Shown here: in pieces, positions 2,341 to 17,378 of the stretch
Numbering within the stretch: the stretch's first letter is position 1
Layout of the letters: the number at the start of each line of letters is the position of its first letter
From: Elusimicrobia bacterium CG06_land_8_20_14_3_00_38_11
GTDB taxonomy: Bacteria > Elusimicrobiota > UBA8919
Assembly (NCBI GenBank): GCA_002780205.1
Contig: PEVQ01000190.1
Location: 1 to 31,423, forward strand
DNA: 31,423 bases
Direction: 5' to 3'
Notes under the pieces: model-generated
What the model was told of the DNA's origin: nothing
Database searches by the model: none
Seen by the model: only the letters and a program-made list of their open reading frames with translations
Position numbers and translations under genes: made by a program

Positions 2341-3444
2341 ATGAGAAAAATTTTAATCTGTGTAATCTGTGTTTTCAATCTATGTAATCTGTGTTTTGCA
2401 AAAAAAGAAGGAACTGTTATTTTAGATTCGCTGCCCAAAGCGATTTCACCAAATAGAGACGGTTTATATGAAAAAACAAGATTTATTATTTCCGCGGATG
2501 CAGGTAAAATCAAAAAGTGGACAATTGAAATAAAAAACGATATTGGCGTTCCCGTAAAAACTTTTACCGGCGTTGATGCTATTCCCGTTGCTCTTGAGTG
2601 GGACGGCACTGATGAAAAAGGCACAGTGGCGCCCGACGGCAAATATGTTTGTGTGATGACTATTGACGGCAAATATCCCGCCCGTTCAAATGAATTATGG
2701 ATTAATGTGGACACGATGGAACCGTTCGCCGGAATTTCTGTCTCAACGAACGGAATTACTCCGAATAATGATGGCAGAGATGATTTTGTTGACATTTCGT
2801 TTATTGCCGAAGACCCCGTAGGTTTTTCTCTCTGGCAGATATCAATTGAAAATTCTAAAGGTATTGAAGTAATATCCAGAAAAGGTAACAATGATATTCT
2901 GAAAAGTTTCAGGTGGGACGGCAAAGACGATTATTACAAAAATGTCGTTCCCGATGGTAAATATAAAATAAAATTCAGCGTGCTTGATGCGGTCGGCAAC
3001 AAAACAGAGGCAGAGCCGGTTGAAATAGATGTTAGCGTTCAGAAAAAAATTATTCCCGAAGTAAAAAATATTTCCGTTAAAGAGGAAAAAAGGGGGCTGG
3101 TCGTTAATCTTGCCTCTGCGGTACTTTTTGATTCTGGCAAGTCGGAATTAAAACCCGCCTCTTATTCGGTTATGAACGAAGTGGTAAAACTTATGCAGGA
3201 TTACCCGGAAAATAAAATTTTGATTGAAGGTCACACGGACAGTTATGGAAGCAATGCATATAATAAAAAATTATCCGAAAAACGGGCACAGGCGGTTAGC
3301 AATGTTCTTGTTTCAAAATACGCGGTGGACTCAAAACGGCTGAAAGTGGTGGGCTACGGCGAGGAGAAACCGCTTGCGGATAACAAAACTGCCGTCGGAA
3401 GAGAACAAAACAGAAGAGTGGAAATTATAATACTTAAAAAATGA
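2341..3444 (+). CDS. Exported OmpA-family protein with two FlgD/Ig-like (SPNxDG...WDG) domains
   Basis: GGAGG RBS and a signal peptide. Repeated ISPNRDG/ITPNNDGRDD and WDGTD..PDGKY/WDGKD..PDGKY motifs. OmpA C-terminal domain LFDSGKSELK...IEGHTDSYG...LSEKRA...NRRVEI. Confidence 0.9.
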   Translation: MRKILICVICVFNLCNLCFAKKEGTVILDSLPKAISPNRDGLYEKTRFIISADAGKIKKWTIEIKNDIGVPVKTFTGVDAIPVALEWDGTDEKGTVAPDGKYVCVMTIDGKYPARSNELWINVDTMEPFAGISVSTNGITPNNDGRDDFVDISFIAEDPVGFSLWQISIENSKGIEVISRKGNNDILKSFRWDGKDDYYKNVVPDGKYKIKFSVLDAVGNKTEAEPVEIDVSVQKKIIPEVKNISVKEEKRGLVVNLASAVLFDSGKSELKPASYSVMNEVVKLMQDYPENKILIEGHTDSYGSNAYNKKLSEKRAQAVSNVLVSKYAVDSKRLKVVGYGEEKPLADNKTAVGREQNRRVEIIILKK

Positions 3445-3538
3445 TGCGAGGGCATATCAGGATTTCAATCCTGATGCTTATGCCCGAAGCATCACACAAT
3501 AATGGTAGCCCACCCTTCAGGGTGGGTGAGCGAAGCGA
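3442..3538 (+). repeat. Structured intergenic element, copy A (double hairpin with TGAGCGAAGCGA tail)
   Basis: TCAGGAT-TTCA-ATCCTGA inside an outer stem (TGATGC/GCATCA, GGGCATA/TATGCCC), then CAATAATG, GTAG-CCCACCC-TTCA-GGGTGGG and TGAGCGAAGCGA. Confidence 0.85.
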
Positions 3539-4370: not shown

Positions 4371-4465
4371 GAATTTGTGAAATGGCGGGTTTCAACCCGC
4401 CGCCAATGGAACAAATTCGAACCAATAATGTGGCCCCCGAATTTATTCGGGGGTGAGCGAAGCGA
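4371..4465 (+). repeat. Structured intergenic element, copy B (95 nt)
   Basis: GAATTTGT/ACAAATTC outer stem, GGCGGGT-TTCA-ACCCGCC, CAATAATG, GTGG-CCCCCGAA-TTTA-TTCGGGGG and TGAGCGAAGCGA. It is gap-free colinear with copy C (79/95 identical by hand count). Confidence 0.9.
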
Positions 4466-4482
4466 AATGGAGGTGATGTAAA

Positions 4483-4704
4483 ATGATGGCAGTAATTGGT
4501 GGTATTGTTGCGGTCTTAATCGGTATTGTTTTGCTGTTTGGCGGTCCGCTTTTTGGTCTTCCTGTTTATATGTGGGATGACTTCCTTGTTTGTCTTAAAG
4601 GGACTATTTCTTCTGGACTTGTGCTCGGTGGAATTCTCGCAGTTATAGCCGGTGTTTCGGCAATCAAGGACAGGGCAAAAGCGAAATCAGAGGAAAATAA
4701 ATAA
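4483..4704 (+). CDS. Small membrane protein, 73 aa, two hydrophobic segments
   Basis: Strong GGAGGT RBS, two Gly-rich hydrophobic stretches and a charged tail. Its stop abuts the thiL start. Confidence 0.75.
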   Translation: MMAVIGGIVAVLIGIVLLFGGPLFGLPVYMWDDFLVCLKGTISSGLVLGGILAVIAGVSAIKDRAKAKSEENK

Positions 4705-5676
4705 TTGAAAATATCTCAACTTGGCGAGTTTGGTTTAATAGAAAGAATAAGAGAGAAAAACAAAAAAGCGGTTCATCATTCCGGGACGGTTGTCGGTATA
4801 GGCGACGATTGTGCTGTCGTGAAATGCCGAAATGAAAACTTGCTTTTTACGACGGACACACTTGTAGAAAATGTCCATTTTTCAAAAAAATATTACAGTT
4901 TTTTTGATATTGGATATAAATCGCTTGCCGTTAACCTTTCCGATATCGCTGCGATGGGGGGTATGCCGCTTTACGCTCTTGTAACCGCCGGTTTTCCTGC
5001 CGAAACAAAAGTTAAAGACGCAGATGAAATTTATCGCGCAATTCGTAAACTTGCTACCGAGTTTAATGTTGAAATTATAGGAGGAGATACCGTTAAGTCC
5101 CCGGCTGCTTTAATAATTTCAATTACACTTATAGGAAAAACAATTTTCGGTTCCGGTATAAAAAGAAGCGGAGCGGTCGCTGGTGATTTAATTTTCACGA
5201 CCGGCAATTTCGGTGACTCTTCGGCAGGACTTTACTTATTACAAAAAGGTATTTCGGACTATAAAGAACTTAAAAAAAAGCATCTGAATCCCTACCCGCG
5301 AATTAAAGAAGGATTTTTTATCGCAAAATCCGGTTTTGCAACTTCAATGATTGATTCTTCCGACGGGTTTGATAAGTCAGTCCGTTTTATCTGTCAGGAA
5401 TCAAAAGTTGGTTGCAAAATTTATCTTGACAAAATTCCCGTTTCTGATGAGTTTAAATCTTTCGCTTCCGACTTCCGACTTCCGACTTCCGACTTTATTT
5501 TATTCGGTGGCGAAGAATATGAACTTATATTTACCGTCCCGCCCGGTAAAAAATCATATTTTGAAAAAAGATTTTATGAAGTAGGAAAAATTACAAAAGA
5601 CAAAAAAATTATCTATCTGAACTCAAACAATAAAAAAGTCAATTTGAAAAATAACGGCTATGACCATTTCAAGTAA
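4705..5676 (+). CDS. thiL: Thiamine-monophosphate kinase
   Basis: GEFGLIE, GIGDDCAVV, TTDTLVENVHF, KSLAVNLSDIAAMGG, IIGGDT, MIDSSDG and GGEEYELIFT motifs; TTG start. Confidence 0.95.
   Translation: MKISQLGEFGLIERIREKNKKAVHHSGTVVGIGDDCAVVKCRNENLLFTTDTLVENVHFSKKYYSFFDIGYKSLAVNLSDIAAMGGMPLYALVTAGFPAETKVKDADEIYRAIRKLATEFNVEIIGGDTVKSPAALIISITLIGKTIFGSGIKRSGAVAGDLIFTTGNFGDSSAGLYLLQKGISDYKELKKKHLNPYPRIKEGFFIAKSGFATSMIDSSDGFDKSVRFICQESKVGCKIYLDKIPVSDEFKSFASDFRLPTSDFILFGGEEYELIFTVPPGKKSYFEKRFYEVGKITKDKKIIYLNSNNKKVNLKNNGYDHFK
5465..5495 (+). repeat. Heptamer tandem repeat (CTTCCGA)x4.4 inside thiL
   Basis: CTTCCGA four times plus CTT, translated as ASDFRLPTSDF. Confidence 0.9.
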
Positions 5677-7309
5677 AACCGAACAAATGTTCGGTTTTGG
5701 AAAAATCAAAAATATGTTCCGTCTAAAGCAATTTGAAAAAACTGAAAACCGAACAAATGTTCGCCCGAACAAATGTTCGGAGATTGCGTTTCTCTGTGTT
5801 GTTACTATTATCCTTTTAGTTCCGTTTTACAACAAGGCAATTTCTTCCGATGCGATATTTTATATCTATACGGCAAGACAGATTCTAAAAGAGCCGCTTA
5901 AACCGTTTGATTTCCAGATAAACTGTGCAGAAAAAAATTATTTCGGATGGGATGTTGCCAATAATCCGCCATTGGTCTCATACCTCATTGCCGGTATCAT
6001 AAAAATTTTTGGCGAAAATGAAAAAATACTGCATCTTGTTTTTCTTGGTTTTGCCGTATTTACCATTATGGGAATGTATTTTCTATCCGATGAGTTAAAA
6101 ATAAATCCGTTTTTTTCCACACTTCTTTTAATAGCCAGCCCGGCATTTTTTGTGAATGCTACCGATATTATGCTTGATATTCCGATGCTCGCATTTTCAC
6201 TGTGGGGTATCTATTTTGTAATTAACGAAAAATTTATCGGATGGATTTTACTCGGTTTGGCGGTTCTTATAAAATTTGTAGCGATTATAAATTTACCGGT
6301 TGTTTTTGCATGGTTTTTACTTAATAAAAAACTAAAAAAAAATCTTATATTTTTTTTGATTCCGATTTTATTTTTAATTGCCTGGTCAACGCATAATAAA
6401 TTAGTTTATGATGAAATTCAAATTCTGAAAAAATCTCTTTCGGTGGGGTTGTTTTTCGGACCGGTAAAAGAAATTCCGCTTTTAACCTACCTCGGAGGCG
6501 CTTTTATTTTTCCTTTGAGTATTTTATGGATTAGTTTCAAATACAATAAAGTTTATATTTGGTTTTTTATAATTTTATTTTCAGTTGCAAATCTTTTTTT
6601 TAACTTACTTGGTAATTCTAATCTTAAAAATTTGTTTTTCGGAGTTTTTATATCTTCGTCAGTTATGCTTATTTTTATTTTTGCAGAGCATCTTAGAAAA
6701 ACAAATTTCCAAAACGAAACTTTTTTTCTTGTAATGTGGTTTTTTCTATATTTTCTTTTTTTTGCATCCGTTTCGGCGATAATTGCGGTAAGATATCTTT
6801 TACCTCTTTTGCCACCGGTAATAATGCTATTAGTAAAAATATCGCAAGATTTATCAACCAGAAAAGTTTTTTTGACAATAACGATTACAGCAGGAATTAT
6901 CCTGTCGTTATTTCTTACACATTCCGATTATATGCTTGCCGGTTCATACAGGGATATTGCGGAATATATCAAAAATAATTATGCGGGGCAAAATGTTTAT
7001 TTTACAGGACATCTTGGCTTCCAATACTATATGGAGAAAAACGGTTTTTTAGCAGTTGATTCAAACGATAAAATATATCCGAAAAATTCGATTTTAGTTA
7101 ATCCGATTTTTCCTGTCACGCAAAAAATTCATAAAGATGTCTTTAAAAAATTAAAATTCATAGAAGAAAAATATGTATTTACAAAAAATCCTTTTAGAAC
7201 AATGAACCCCTGGGTAAATGCGGGATTTCACTTAAATATGTATGGGCTTTTGCCTTATTCCTTTTCAAGCGACCCGTTAGAAGCATTTATAATTTACAAA
7301 GTTAAATGA
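5660..7309 (+). CDS. GT-C fold glycosyltransferase (ArnT/PMT, GT39/GT83-like)
   Basis: Multi-pass membrane protein with SSDAIFYIYTARQI, NNPPLVSYLIA, MLDIPMLAFSLWG, LAVLIKF and AVRYLLPLLPP. The start codon is uncertain (5660, 5687 or 5714). Confidence 0.75.
   Translation: MTISSKTEQMFGFGKIKNMFRLKQFEKTENRTNVRPNKCSEIAFLCVVTIILLVPFYNKAISSDAIFYIYTARQILKEPLKPFDFQINCAEKNYFGWDVANNPPLVSYLIAGIIKIFGENEKILHLVFLGFAVFTIMGMYFLSDELKINPFFSTLLLIASPAFFVNATDIMLDIPMLAFSLWGIYFVINEKFIGWILLGLAVLIKFVAIINLPVVFAWFLLNKKLKKNLIFFLIPILFLIAWSTHNKLVYDEIQILKKSLSVGLFFGPVKEIPLLTYLGGAFIFPLSILWISFKYNKVYIWFFIILFSVANLFFNLLGNSNLKNLFFGVFISSSVMLIFIFAEHLRKTNFQNETFFLVMWFFLYFLFFASVSAIIAVRYLLPLLPPVIMLLVKISQDLSTRKVFLTITITAGIILSLFLTHSDYMLAGSYRDIAEYIKNNYAGQNVYFTGHLGFQYYMEKNGFLAVDSNDKIYPKNSILVNPIFPVTQKIHKDVFKKLKFIEEKYVFTKNPFRTMNPWVNAGFHLNMYGLLPYSFSSDPLEAFIIYKVK
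5675..5780. repeat. Three copies of the palindrome CGAAC-AAAT-GTTCG (matches the Gram-positive-type LexA box consensus)
   Basis: Exact copies at 5680-5693, 5750-5763 and 5766-5779. The first extends to a 10-bp inverted repeat AAAACCGAAC/GTTCGGTTTT (5675-5698). Confidence 0.8.
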
Positions 7310-14822: not shown

Positions 14823-16070
14823 ATGATTAAGCGATTTTTAATTTTAACCTTTCACTTTTTACTTTTAACTTTCATCAACGCTTCTGACTTAACGGTTACA
14901 TTCATAAATGTCGGGCAGGTCGGCGATTCAATTTTAATTCAGACACCGTTAAATAAAAACATACTTATTGACGGCGGTTTGTGGTATGCGGGTGAAAAAA
15001 ATATAGCCCCCGTTCTTAGAAATAAAAATATAGAAAAAATTGACACCGTAATTCTTACCCATCCTCACGGCGACCATTACGGCGGACTGGAATATATTCT
15101 TAAAAACTTTAAGGTAGTGGAGGTTTTAACTGATGGAATTGTTTCACCGGTTGAGCCCTATCAGGATTTTCTATTAGAAGTGAAAAAAAGCGGTGCGGCA
15201 TATAAAATAGTTGCCGTCGGTGAAAAATACGATTGGGGCGGCTGCGAAGCGACCGTATTAAACTCAAAAAACGAGATTTTATACAGCACCGAAGCATACA
15301 ATAATCATTCCGTAGTAATAAAACTTACACACGGTAAAAATTCGTTTCTTTTTACCGGCGATATAGAAAAAGAAGCCGAAAATTTTTTGCAAAGTAATTA
15401 TGACATAAAATCTACCGTCTTAAAAATCCCGCATCACGGAAGCAGTTCGTCGTCAACTTATAAATTTCTGAAAAAGGTAGCACCCAAAATTGCCGTGCTT
15501 ACCGTCGGTTATCCCAATGATTATGGTCTGCCTGTTTTATCAACGCTTGAAAAATACAAGCAACTCAATATTAAATTGTACAGAACAGATATTGACGGTA
15601 ACATTGAAATAATTTCAGACGGTAAAGCGATAAAAATTAACATGGAAAAAAAATCGGATATAAACAGGTATTCAGCATCCGTCAGTACATTTTCAACAAA
15701 TTACGATGACTTTTGGATGTATATGGATAATGGTTGGTTTTTAGTGAGGGATAAAAAATTTGAAGAAGCGGTTGTTGAACTGAAGAGAGCCGTCGTGATA
15801 AATCCTAATTCGGCAGATGCCCACTCCAAACTCGGCTATGCTTACAAAAAAATAAATAATTCTGTGCTTGCCGAAACAGAATTTTTGAAAGCAATTTCTC
15901 TCAACGCTCAAGAGTATTATGCACGGATACATCTCGGATTGATGTATTACTTTGATGATAAATCCGACGCGGCGGTTACACTTTTTAAAAAAGCACTTGA
16001 AGTTGAACCGCAAGGAAGATACACTGATTTATTGAAGGAAAAAATAGAAGAAATAGAACAAAGAAAATGA
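14823..16070 (+). CDS. Exported ComEC/Rec2-type metallo-beta-lactamase-fold hydrolase with C-terminal TPRs
   Basis: TFINVGQVGDS, ILIDGG, LTHPHGDHYGG, FLFTGDIE, LKIPHHGS and LYRTD..GNI, followed by three to four TPRs. There is no membrane Competence domain. Confidence 0.85.
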   Translation: MIKRFLILTFHFLLLTFINASDLTVTFINVGQVGDSILIQTPLNKNILIDGGLWYAGEKNIAPVLRNKNIEKIDTVILTHPHGDHYGGLEYILKNFKVVEVLTDGIVSPVEPYQDFLLEVKKSGAAYKIVAVGEKYDWGGCEATVLNSKNEILYSTEAYNNHSVVIKLTHGKNSFLFTGDIEKEAENFLQSNYDIKSTVLKIPHHGSSSSSTYKFLKKVAPKIAVLTVGYPNDYGLPVLSTLEKYKQLNIKLYRTDIDGNIEIISDGKAIKINMEKKSDINRYSASVSTFSTNYDDFWMYMDNGWFLVRDKKFEEAVVELKRAVVINPNSADAHSKLGYAYKKINNSVLAETEFLKAISLNAQEYYARIHLGLMYYFDDKSDAAVTLFKKALEVEPQGRYTDLLKEKIEEIEQRK

Positions 16071-16163
16071 ATTTGTGGAATGAGGGACTTCAGTCCCTCG
16101 TCAATGGAACAAATTCAAACCAATAATGTAGCCCCCGACTTTAGTCGGGGATGAGCAAAGCGA
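16069..16163 (+). repeat. Structured intergenic element, copy C (95 nt)
   Basis: GAATTTGT/ACAAATTC, GAGGGAC-TTCA-GTCCCTC, CAATAATG, GTAG-C-CCCCGAC-TTTA-GTCGGGG and TGAGCAAAGCGA. Confidence 0.9.
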
Positions 16164-16172
16164 GGGGAAATA

Positions 16173-17378
16173 ATGTTCACACATTTACACAATCATTTTA
16201 TCGGTTCGTTTTCTGACAGCGCCCTGCGGATTGATGAAGCGGTAAAAAAAGCGAAATCACTTGGACAAAATGCAATCGCTATAACGGAACACGGCGAAAT
16301 GCCGTTTATGTATGAATTTTCTGATGCCTGTAAAAAATACGGCGTGAAACCGATTTTCGGCGTTGAAATATATTTTGTCGACGATGCCCAAAAATCAATT
16401 GAAAAGAGGGACAAAAACAGGTTTCATCTTGTTTTACTTGCAAAAAACGACGAGGGCTATAAAAATCTCGTTTCGCTTGTTTCTGATAGTTGGCTTTTTA
16501 ATAATTATTATGAACGCCGCGGGCTTGTTGATTGGAAACTTTTAGAAAAATATCACGAGGGTTTAATCGCTTCATCTGCCTGTTTTTTTAATCAGATCTC
16601 GCAGGCATACATAAAAAATGGCCTTCCCGATGCTGAAAAAATTTTTATAAAATACAAAGAAATTTTCGGAAATGATTTCTATGTTGAGATAGCGAAGCAC
16701 GGTATTACCGACGAGGAAATATCAAATAAAGGGTTGCTGGAACTTGCCAAAAAATATAATGTGACCCCGATTGCAACAAATGATGTTCATTATTTGGAAA
16801 TTGACGATTGGCTTGCCCACGACATTATCATAAAAACCCGTTTTGATAAAATATCGTCGTTTAAGATTGATTCGCATCACTTCTGGCTTAAATCGGAAAA
16901 AGAAATGTTTGATGCGGGGATGCCCCAGGAATTTTTGGACAACACTCAAAAAATTGTTGCGAAGTGCGAATTTGTTCTGAATGACTTTGAGCAAGTGCCA
17001 TATGAAAATACAGGGTCGGAAGATGTAGAAATAAAAAAAGGCAATGCCGCTTATCTGTCGCAATTGGAATTTATTTCCAGCAGCAAGGCAATTTATTACG
17101 CCGAAAACATAATAGGGAAAAATCATCCGGATGTCGTTCACTATGCCGAAAGGATTACGGGAATTCCGAGAAAAAGTTCGCAGAACCCGAATAAAATCGC
17201 GTATCTTCCCGGCATAAAAGAAAAAATTCCGCTTAAAATTTCACTCGGCAAAATTATCACGCAGTTCACTGAAGATTCCTGTTGTCGCGCCGGGGCTTCA
17301 ATCCAGCCGCTCGTACGCTCAACTTTGGCGGAGGCGTTGCTCGCTGCCAAAAAAGTCCTTAAAAAAATTATAGAATAG
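16173..17378 (+). CDS. DnaE-type PHP-domain protein (mini-DnaE, no intact polymerase active site)
   Basis: HLHNH, AIAITEHG, GVKPIFGVE, HLVLLAKNDEGYKNL, GLIASSAC and ATNDVHY match the Pol III alpha N-terminus. Only about 130 aa follow, and they contain degenerate palm fragments. Confidence 0.85.
   Translation: MFTHLHNHFIGSFSDSALRIDEAVKKAKSLGQNAIAITEHGEMPFMYEFSDACKKYGVKPIFGVEIYFVDDAQKSIEKRDKNRFHLVLLAKNDEGYKNLVSLVSDSWLFNNYYERRGLVDWKLLEKYHEGLIASSACFFNQISQAYIKNGLPDAEKIFIKYKEIFGNDFYVEIAKHGITDEEISNKGLLELAKKYNVTPIATNDVHYLEIDDWLAHDIIIKTRFDKISSFKIDSHHFWLKSEKEMFDAGMPQEFLDNTQKIVAKCEFVLNDFEQVPYENTGSEDVEIKKGNAAYLSQLEFISSSKAIYYAENIIGKNHPDVVHYAERITGIPRKSSQNPNKIAYLPGIKEKIPLKISLGKIITQFTEDSCCRAGASIQPLVRSTLAEALLAAKKVLKKIIE

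Follow-up and report, generated by a model that had tools for sequence, protein, structure and literature searches.

The 31,423-nt contig PEVQ01000190.1 of Elusimicrobia bacterium CG06_land_8_20_14_3_00_38_11 (assembly GCA_002780205.1; the whole stretch is hereinafter designated the window) carries on its forward strand a gene for a 401-residue protein (P0001, hereinafter designated mini-DnaE) related to DNA polymerase III's alpha subunit (Pol III alpha). Mini-DnaE represents a conserved family that is under strong purifying selection and is not decaying. Its N-terminal PHP domain keeps a complete metal site, its C-terminal ~110 residues are a true remnant of the DnaE palm, and both parts share descent with DnaE. 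It probably works as a stand-alone nuclease or phosphoesterase, and we have found no description of its family.

An intact PHP site joined to a remnant of the DnaE palm

The mini-DnaE gene divides into the following parts (coordinates in the window, strand, description and basis):

16162–16167, +, ribosome-binding site GAGGGG, 5 nt before the mini-DnaE ATG (read directly from the sequence)
16173–17378, +, mini-DnaE coding sequence, 401 codons plus stop (uninterrupted open reading frame)
16173–16982, +, DnaE-type PHP domain, residues 1–270 (Pfam PF02811, ligand conservation, alignment to 5lew)
16983–17039, +, variable linker, residues 271–289 (poor conservation, high non-synonymous rate)
17040–17321, +, vestigial palm, residues 290–383 (hhalign, structural superposition, ratio of non-synonymous to synonymous substitution rates (dN/dS) of 0.08–0.14)
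17322–17375, +, C-terminal amphipathic helix, residues 384–401, basic and less conserved (helix 384–400 in the secondary structure of the AlphaFold2 (AF2) model)

Position 16173 is the first ATG of the frame, since the open frame comprises 407 codons with only six further codons upstream. Pfam PF02811 (PHP) matches residues 4–176 with an E value of 9e-44 (150.1 bits against a cut-off of 26.4), and all nine metal ligands are present (H6, H8, D15, H40, E65, H85, C137, D204 and H206). These nine positions are 100% conserved in 32 representatives of the polymerase-dead group as well as in 34 full-length DnaEs, and are likewise invariant in family alignments of 17 and 35 sequences. Mini-DnaE thereby shows the HHDHEH[C/H]DH pattern, by which PHP domains are counted as active in recent surveys (PMC12926913). 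The PHP part shares 37% identity with the DnaE of the same genome over residues 2–275, and 37–40% with DnaE over ~270 residues; the AF2 model superimposes on the PHP-only chimera chains 4gx8 and 4gx9 with Z scores of 29.4–29.6 (257–258 residues, 2.1–2.2 Å). Within this domain, the motif RGLVDW (residues 116–121) is invariant and specific to the family. In the alignment to 5lew, R115 and R116 fall on K136 and W137 of the DNA-wedge β-hairpin of Mycobacterium tuberculosis DnaE1, where mutation of these residues reduces the exonuclease-dependent activity; the PHP sites of Mycobacterium and Thermus DnaE1 are proofreading sites (PMC5636811).

Beyond the PHP domain, little of the polymerase is left. 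Relative to the genome's own DnaE, mini-DnaE lacks the N-terminal half of the palm (~292–432), including the GPGRGS motif at 365 and the PDLDIDF catalytic strand at 406, all of the thumb beyond its first and last helices, and everything after about residue 575. The linker of residues 271–289 stands where DnaE has roughly this 292–432 segment with its GRGS motif and PDxDxD strand. The position of the third catalytic aspartate falls on Pro379 both when the profile alignment is extended without gaps and when structures are superimposed; family members differ in this column, and neither Pro379 nor the neighbouring Gln378 provides a carboxylate. No clamp-binding motif was found in mini-DnaE, and PF07733 gives no match to it at E ≤ 1. 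Because the two catalytic aspartates and GRGS are deleted, the third aspartate is substituted, and thumb, fingers, clamp-binding part, OB domain and tail are absent, sequence and model predict that mini-DnaE cannot synthesise DNA. Consistently short coverage is seen in family models: TIGR00594 reaches 229 bits (cut-off 434) and NF005298 reaches 238 (cut-off 1260), both over residues 2–276 only, and altogether the NCBIfam DnaE models and DnaE sequences of the Protein Data Bank (PDB) match only from residue 2 to about 275–301.

A preceding reading by a model, made from the sequence alone (hereinafter the sequence-only reading), had described an uninterrupted frame with a ribosome-binding site, nine PHP ligands, and the loss of GRGS, the PD.D.D pair, most of the thumb and the fingers and OB domains, all of which agrees with the above. 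Its replacement of the third aspartate by Gln (Gln378) agrees in that no carboxylate is present and is shifted by one residue from our alignments, which give Pro379.

The descent of the C-terminal part from the palm is supported by four independent lines, two of them profile–profile comparisons and two structural. A profile of 20 C-terminal sequences matches a 21-sequence profile of the DnaE palm and thumb (hhalign probability 90.5%, E value 1.4e-6), pairing residues 290–376 of mini-DnaE with 464–557 of the genome's own DnaE. Relatives that retain the thumb match DnaE still better (96.3%, 1.5e-9): their alignment starts at the AK..(I/V)RDVGR helix, spans the entire thumb and reaches the TQ strand. 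The mini-DnaE SKAIYYAENIIG helix falls on this AK..(I/V)RDVGR helix in the family alignment. The family C-terminal profile also matches, weakly, a genuine DnaE of 1173 codons in a related genome (E value 3.8e-4). When the C-terminal part is compared with the genome's own DnaE by pairwise BLAST, no significant similarity appears (E value 11), so that the matches drawn by eye in the sequence-only reading would not by themselves rise above chance; it is the profiles and the structure that give them significance.

The structural evidence agrees. The AF2 model, built from an alignment of family members only and with no templates, has a mean predicted local distance difference test score (pLDDT) of 93 and a predicted template-modelling (TM) score of 0.90. 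Of its residues, 373 align to the Pol III alpha of Thermus aquaticus (Taq; 2.3 Å, Z 47.1, model residues 1–383 on 6–622) and 371 to that of Escherichia coli (Z 45.9, 1–381 on 5–557), with root-mean-square deviations (rmsd) for the two of 2.3–2.6 Å in VIA-align; PHP-only chains, by contrast, align over 257 residues with a Z score of 29.6. Query-normalised Foldseek TM scores likewise are 0.83 for Pol III alpha against 0.60 for PHP-only chains. The alignments end at about E. coli residue 557–576 and skip most of the thumb. We also modelled the C-terminal 116 residues alone (pLDDT 93.7) and compared them, with no prefilter, against 48,161 PDB representatives. Seven chains reach Z ≥ 2, all of them C-family polymerases, and the isolated domain aligns to residues 438–608 of M. 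tuberculosis DnaE1, 418–576 of the E. coli, 480–637 of the Taq and 989–1346 of the PolC enzyme. Since the thumb is skipped, the rmsd is high and the Z score (7.6) moderate; it is the exclusivity of the matches that carries weight.

In these superpositions, strand 292–300 and helix 303–314 of mini-DnaE are the equivalents of DnaE's final palm strand and initial thumb helix, whereas helix 321–328, hairpin 332–344 and strands 354–357, 360–363 and 376–379 correspond to the second palm segment, in which R333 is invariant across the family. The final helix (384–401; dN/dS 0.26–0.5) occupies the position of the DnaE helix that leads from palm to fingers, the structural alignments reaching E. coli 574–576 and Taq 640.

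The sequence-only reading had paired the last 130 residues with DnaE segments in order, through four matches that fare unequally. The second and third (YAERITGIPRK with A.KLEG..R; IPL...GKIITQF with VPL....TQF) are reproduced directly by hhalign at the 1.4e-6 E value, in an alignment that pairs GIPR with EGL.R, IPL with VPL and ITQF with TTQ(F/Y). The first (a strand and helix compared with V.QIITFGT..AK.AIRDVGR) is not found in the direct comparison and is recovered transitively through the thumb-retaining relatives at 1.5e-9; the isolated C-terminal model, which aligns from E. coli 418, M. tuberculosis 438 and Taq 480 onward, supports it as well. The fourth (GASIQPL... with GL.K.DFLGL) appears only in a low-confidence extension of the alignment and in the structural superposition. 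The similarity to the palm that was proposed as a check on that reading is thus present in both profile and structure. Separately, a phmmer extension reaching Taq residue 316 (AAYLSQLEFI with AQYLRELTFL) was rejected: the model has a strand at this point, and the structural alignments place it before the thumb. The Taq segment near residue 316 is presumably helical in the solved structure.

A conserved family under purifying selection

A search of 5.8 billion proteins returned about 20 full-length homologues of 397–409 residues with 63–91% identity, all from Elusimicrobiota metagenome-assembled genomes (MAGs), together with more distant forms of 386–414 residues (38–49% identity) and forms of 459–581 residues with C-terminal TPR repeats in MAGs of Auribacterota or the 'PVC group', the distribution outside Elusimicrobiota being that given by database names. 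Among 1.84 billion cluster representatives searched with a profile, about 20 clusters (at 50% identity) match the whole mini-DnaE module in one stretch. Longer proteins are found in this set. P0144, a 1342-residue protein from a Candidatus Dependentiae MAG and the only member of its cluster, on a 4.3-kb contig, begins with the module (residues 1–409) and continues with a TPR-like segment, two class III nucleotide-cyclase domains and an AAA_16/NB-ARC STAND ATPase. The module is also carried by an 837-residue Lindowbacteria protein; a PilZ/STAS-like tail seen in it by eye was not confirmed by Pfam at E ≤ 1 and was dropped.

Within the phylum, we surveyed 301 Elusimicrobiota genomes with the profile of the C-terminal part alone. 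It matches every one of the 10 further genomes in the window's family, and the single genome of a sister family in the same order, so that mini-DnaE is present as a single-copy gene with an intact frame of 402–421 codons in 12 of the 12 sampled genomes of one order; in the other 289 of the 301 it was not found. Codon-based comparison with an 87%-identical orthologue gives a dN/dS of 0.08 for the PHP part and 0.08 for residues 290–383 (dS 0.7–0.9, unsaturated), and an 82%-identical orthologue gives 0.06 and 0.13, respectively. Repurposing instead of decay, as the sequence-only reading had it, is borne out by the ratio of about 0.08 and the intact orthologues, and the homologues of the same architecture and ~400 residues that it proposed to look for exist, with dN/dS far from 1.

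Public annotations name some family members 'DNA polymerase III subunit alpha'. One further database entry, P0020 (315 residues, on a 1244-base contig in ENA), is 99% identical to about half of mini-DnaE and bears the Pfam label Radical_SAM; the entry may stem from a chimeric gene call or, its contig being very short, from a misjoin.

Less reduced relatives suggest how the form arose. A 550-residue Aureabacteria protein, P0037, aligns to the whole palm and thumb (E value 8.5e-8, with a weak PF07733 match) and has lost the PDxDxD strand, its GRGS motif being degenerate. Relatives of 580 residues keep the thumb and have gained TPRs, and the Elusimicrobiota form has neither. From the 550- and 580-residue proteins down to the 401-residue one, the series may thus depict a stepwise reduction of a replicase to an accessory enzyme. 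A tree of the PHP domains of 34 DnaEs and 32 dead forms, built unrooted by a quick search and containing some long branches and sequences of outlying composition, separates the two groups by one branch with an SH-aLRT support of 99 and places the genome's own DnaE on the DnaE side. The tree is compatible with a single origin of the polymerase-dead forms, which it does not prove, and mini-DnaE is not a recent truncation of the dnaE of its own lineage. The several in-frame deletions from which the sequence-only reading had argued for repurposing are accordingly not recent events in that dnaE, given the separate branch and the less reduced relatives; the repurposing itself stands.

Gene neighbourhoods and the host genome

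In the window, mini-DnaE is preceded by tsaB, rimI, a gene for a 711-residue exported TPR protein and a gene for an exported metallo-beta-lactamase (MBL)–TPR protein, and is followed by genes for a membrane metallophosphoesterase and a CDF transporter. Two relatives (L011 and L012) have the order tsaB–rimI–TPR–PHP with no MBL gene. The MBL-fold protein with C-terminal TPR repeats is encoded at 14823–16070, between the 711-residue TPR gene and mini-DnaE, and its gene looks inserted into an older order because the TPR gene abuts mini-DnaE in L011 and L012. We considered a functional link to the TPR gene of ~711–726 residues that precedes mini-DnaE in the window and these two relatives, and rejected it: a signal peptide is present in the TPR protein but not in mini-DnaE, and the arrangement is missing from two closer relatives, whose neighbours are wholly different, so that the TPR gene is best read as inherited gene order. 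The intergenic space before mini-DnaE holds a hairpin-rich 95-nt repeated element (16069–16163), the 3′ end of which supplies the GAGGGG of the ribosome-binding site; other copies, according to the sequence-only reading, lie at 3442–3538 and 4371–4465. Rfam gives no match to this element, or near the mini-DnaE gene, at the gathering threshold.

Across the nine neighbourhoods examined, no neighbour is conserved throughout the family, and dnaE, dnaN and dnaX never adjoin mini-DnaE. On three Auribacterota contigs a relative lies directly downstream of the gene for RNase HIII, and one homologue directly follows an H+-pyrophosphatase gene. In L013, a gene for a 268-residue fusion of a DnaQ-like RNase_T domain and WYL (5183–5989) stops 12 nt short of a homologue with 44% identity, after which come an HTH_17 gene, small open reading frames and a gene for a protein of >5000 residues; the context may be a mobile or defence one. 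In L020, a second, different PHP-domain protein (4459–5859; 466 residues, PHP 150–246) is encoded directly upstream of an 82%-identical orthologue.

The host assembly measures 1.54 Mb and is 90% complete. It holds a separate dnaE on another contig, which encodes a full-length protein of 1201 residues with nine PHP ligands, GRGS and PDLDID; a check for lost PHP ligands in this DnaE, proposed with the sequence-only reading, finds all nine kept. A stand-alone dnaQ was not found in the 90%-complete assembly, and the lineage appears to proofread with the DnaE PHP domain in cis. The only RNase_T (DEDD) domain of the genome is inserted in a 736-residue RecJ (contig C110:8828–12289, locus L004, frame 400–2610 on the minus strand) with the domain order DHH, RNase_T, DHHA1 and RecJ_OB. 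A RecJ fusion of ~740 residues is the sole RNase_T match in most genomes of the order, and would join a 5′–3′ and a 3′–5′ exonuclease in one chain. An Xth-type (PF03372) gene was not found in the genome, in which AP_endonuc_2-fold proteins, ExoVII and RecJ are present; an AP-endonuclease or 3′-exonuclease gap that mini-DnaE might fill is thus not evident.

Candidate functions and relation to known systems

Both the catalytic activity and the substrate of mini-DnaE are predictions from sequence. With our confidence evenly poised, we propose that mini-DnaE is a polymerase-dead DnaE paralogue whose PHP site hydrolyses phosphoesters at free 3′ ends, outside the replisome. In this proposal a complete PHP domain with an intact trinuclear metal site would pack, in the cytoplasm, against a palm stump of ~95 residues that may be kept as a structural buttress and, being basic, possibly forms part of a nucleic-acid groove. 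The site would catalyse metal-dependent phosphoester hydrolysis on free 3′ ends of single-stranded nucleic acid, as a 3′–5′ exonuclease or in 3′-end cleaning like the PHP domains of Thermus and Mycobacterium DnaE1 and of PolX, and the protein would work alone instead of inside the replisome. We favour a 3′-end nuclease because the closest relatives are proofreading PHP domains, because the DNA-path hairpin is conserved and the remnant basic (isoelectric point (pI) 9.6 against 5.9 for the PHP part), and because some relatives have nucleic-acid-related neighbours. The individual hints of a nucleic-acid substrate (the R115/R116 hairpin, the pI of the remnant, and the RNase HIII and RNase_T–WYL neighbours) are weak, and several observations weigh against the proposal. 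All parts of DnaE that hold double-stranded DNA are gone, neighbourhoods are unconserved even in close relatives and the RNase HIII link is confined to one lineage, and the TPR and cyclase–STAND relatives suggest protein partners or nucleotide signalling no less than DNA repair. The PHP superfamily hydrolyses many phosphoesters, and an intact site does not fix the substrate. Moreover, AF2 was trained on DnaE structures and might be biased towards this fold in the C-terminal part, a concern from which the profile–profile result is independent.

A small-molecule substrate is the possible alternative that we take most seriously, if still with more doubt than belief. The PHP site would then act as a phosphatase or phosphodiesterase on pyrophosphate, a nucleoside bisphosphate, or a cyclic or linear signalling nucleotide, in a module recruited by the TPR or STAND signalling domains of the longer relatives. 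Such a role would suit a protein with no recognisable DNA-binding domain besides the palm stump, most of whose extended relatives carry C-terminal TPRs and one of which, in Dependentiae, carries two cyclase domains and an AAA_16/NB-ARC ATPase. The homologue that directly follows an H+-pyrophosphatase gene points the same way, as do the stand-alone PHP nucleoside-bisphosphate phosphatases (2yb1, Z 14.3; a weak NCBIfam match) and a pyrophosphatase activity reported for the E. coli DnaE PHP domain (PMC4822814). Yet the PHP domain is much nearer to DnaE (37–40% identity, Z 29.6) than to small-molecule PHP enzymes (Z 8–15), the most invariant family-specific motif is the DnaE1 DNA-path hairpin region, and the cyclase fusion is one cluster with one member. 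Nor is there a pyrophosphatase gap for the protein to fill. We had considered one because PF00719 and PF03030 are both absent from this assembly, and rejected it for want of a complementary distribution: H+-pyrophosphatase is present in 9 of the 10 genomes of the carrier family and 279 of the 301 of the phylum sample, family I pyrophosphatase is rare throughout the phylum, and the absence of the H+-pyrophosphatase here probably reflects assembly incompleteness. A further reading, only slightly less probable, is that the family is an old sister group of the C-family polymerases that discarded the polymerase and kept an autonomous PHP domain as an effector nuclease or nucleotide phosphodiesterase in signalling, stress or defence and not in replication; under this reading, the longer forms might wire the module to TPR and STAND or cyclase signalling domains.

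The sequence-only reading had suggested that mini-DnaE is perhaps a trans-acting proofreader, which would dock on the replisome and remove misincorporated nucleotides on behalf of the replicative DnaE. In favour of this, DnaE1 of Mycobacterium and Thermus proofreads with a PHP site of this type (PMC5636811), and this genome, like most of its order, has its sole RNase_T domain in the RecJ fusion and no stand-alone dnaQ that we could find. The idea is nonetheless improbable because the genome already has a cis proofreader: the 1201-residue product of its full-length dnaE keeps an intact PHP site with nine ligands, as well as GRGS and PDLDID. Mini-DnaE has no clamp-binding motif, thumb, fingers, or tau- or beta-binding parts, its neighbours are not replication genes (it lies beside dnaE, dnaN or dnaX in none of nine neighbourhoods), and most of the phylum does without it. 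We consider only marginally less improbable that it is a non-catalytic pseudo-enzyme, a scaffold or regulator on the old polymerase surface, as the dead polymerase centre and the TPR fusions of relatives, which suggest protein–protein interactions, might lead one to expect: the nine ligands are 100% conserved in ~32 representatives down to ~38% identity while the polymerase-site columns vary freely, the pattern expected of a working PHP site. Least credible by far is a decaying dnaE fragment or an assembly or annotation artefact. Members are indeed sometimes annotated as the polymerase subunit, and many short database matches are contig-end fragments of real dnaE genes; this gene, however, has a ribosome-binding site and a stop of its own and is far from the ends of its 31-kb contig, its dN/dS is about 0.08, intact orthologues occur in 12 of 12 sampled genomes of the order, a separate full-length dnaE exists on another contig, and the 63–91% identity spread excludes a single contaminating contig.

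The family offers a natural minimal construct, a PHP domain with the palm elements needed for its folding, that could aid study of the PHP exonuclease, a proposed antibiotic target in mycobacteria, and it allows 'DNA polymerase III subunit alpha' annotations of such genes to be corrected. Two surveys of bacterial polymerases, from 2013 and 2026, make no mention of a polymerase-less DnaE group, and a further full-text search gave the same result. The 2026 survey discarded sequences that had no recognisable polymerase domain and describes an analogous 'PolX-like' group in family X; we attribute the silence on this branch to the two surveys having dropped or passed over such sequences.

Among known systems, mini-DnaE is closest to Pol III alpha of the DnaE1 type (M. 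tuberculosis, 5lew and 7pu7; Thermus, 2hpi and 4iqj), with which it shares the fold, the nine-ligand trinuclear site and the packing of the PHP domain against the second palm segment, as well as, at the place of the DNA-wedge hairpin in M. tuberculosis DnaE1, a conserved pair of residues that is basic in mini-DnaE (R115 and R116). Unlike Pol III alpha, it is free-standing, lacks the polymerase aspartates along with ~140 residues of the N-terminal palm, the greater part of the thumb, the fingers and all that follows them, and lies on a branch separate from all sampled full-length DnaEs. Stand-alone PHP phosphoesterases, namely RNase AM/YciV (7ug9, 9etk), the nucleoside-bisphosphate phosphatase Cv1693 (2yb1), BAD_1165 (3e0f) and histidinol-phosphate phosphatases (3dcp, 2yxo), share the barrel fold (Z 8–15) and trinuclear metal sites. 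They are single-domain enzymes that act on nucleic-acid ends or nucleotides. In contrast to mini-DnaE none has a palm remnant, and they are distant from it (14–18% identity; 7ug9, 9etk and 2yb1 give Z 13.6–14.3 at 16–18% identity against the model); the RNase AM and nucleoside-bisphosphate phosphatase family models score far below cut-off (NF041577, 20.7 bits against 400).

The nearest parallel in evolutionary course is offered by the PolX-like proteins of Actinobacteria and non-canonical PolX, which lack polymerase activity and keep the PHP exonuclease (PMC12926913; PMC9226535). As in mini-DnaE, the PHP nuclease site is conserved and the polymerase part lost or inactivated, but the parent family is X and not C. 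No PolX chain occurs among the 29 Foldseek matches at E ≤ 0.001 or in the VIA-align table, and every significant match to mini-DnaE, by sequence or by fold, is DnaE or PolC. Mini-DnaE may therefore be viewed as the C-family counterpart of the recently recognised PolX-like proteins, and strengthens the view that a PHP nuclease can outweigh the polymerase that carries it.

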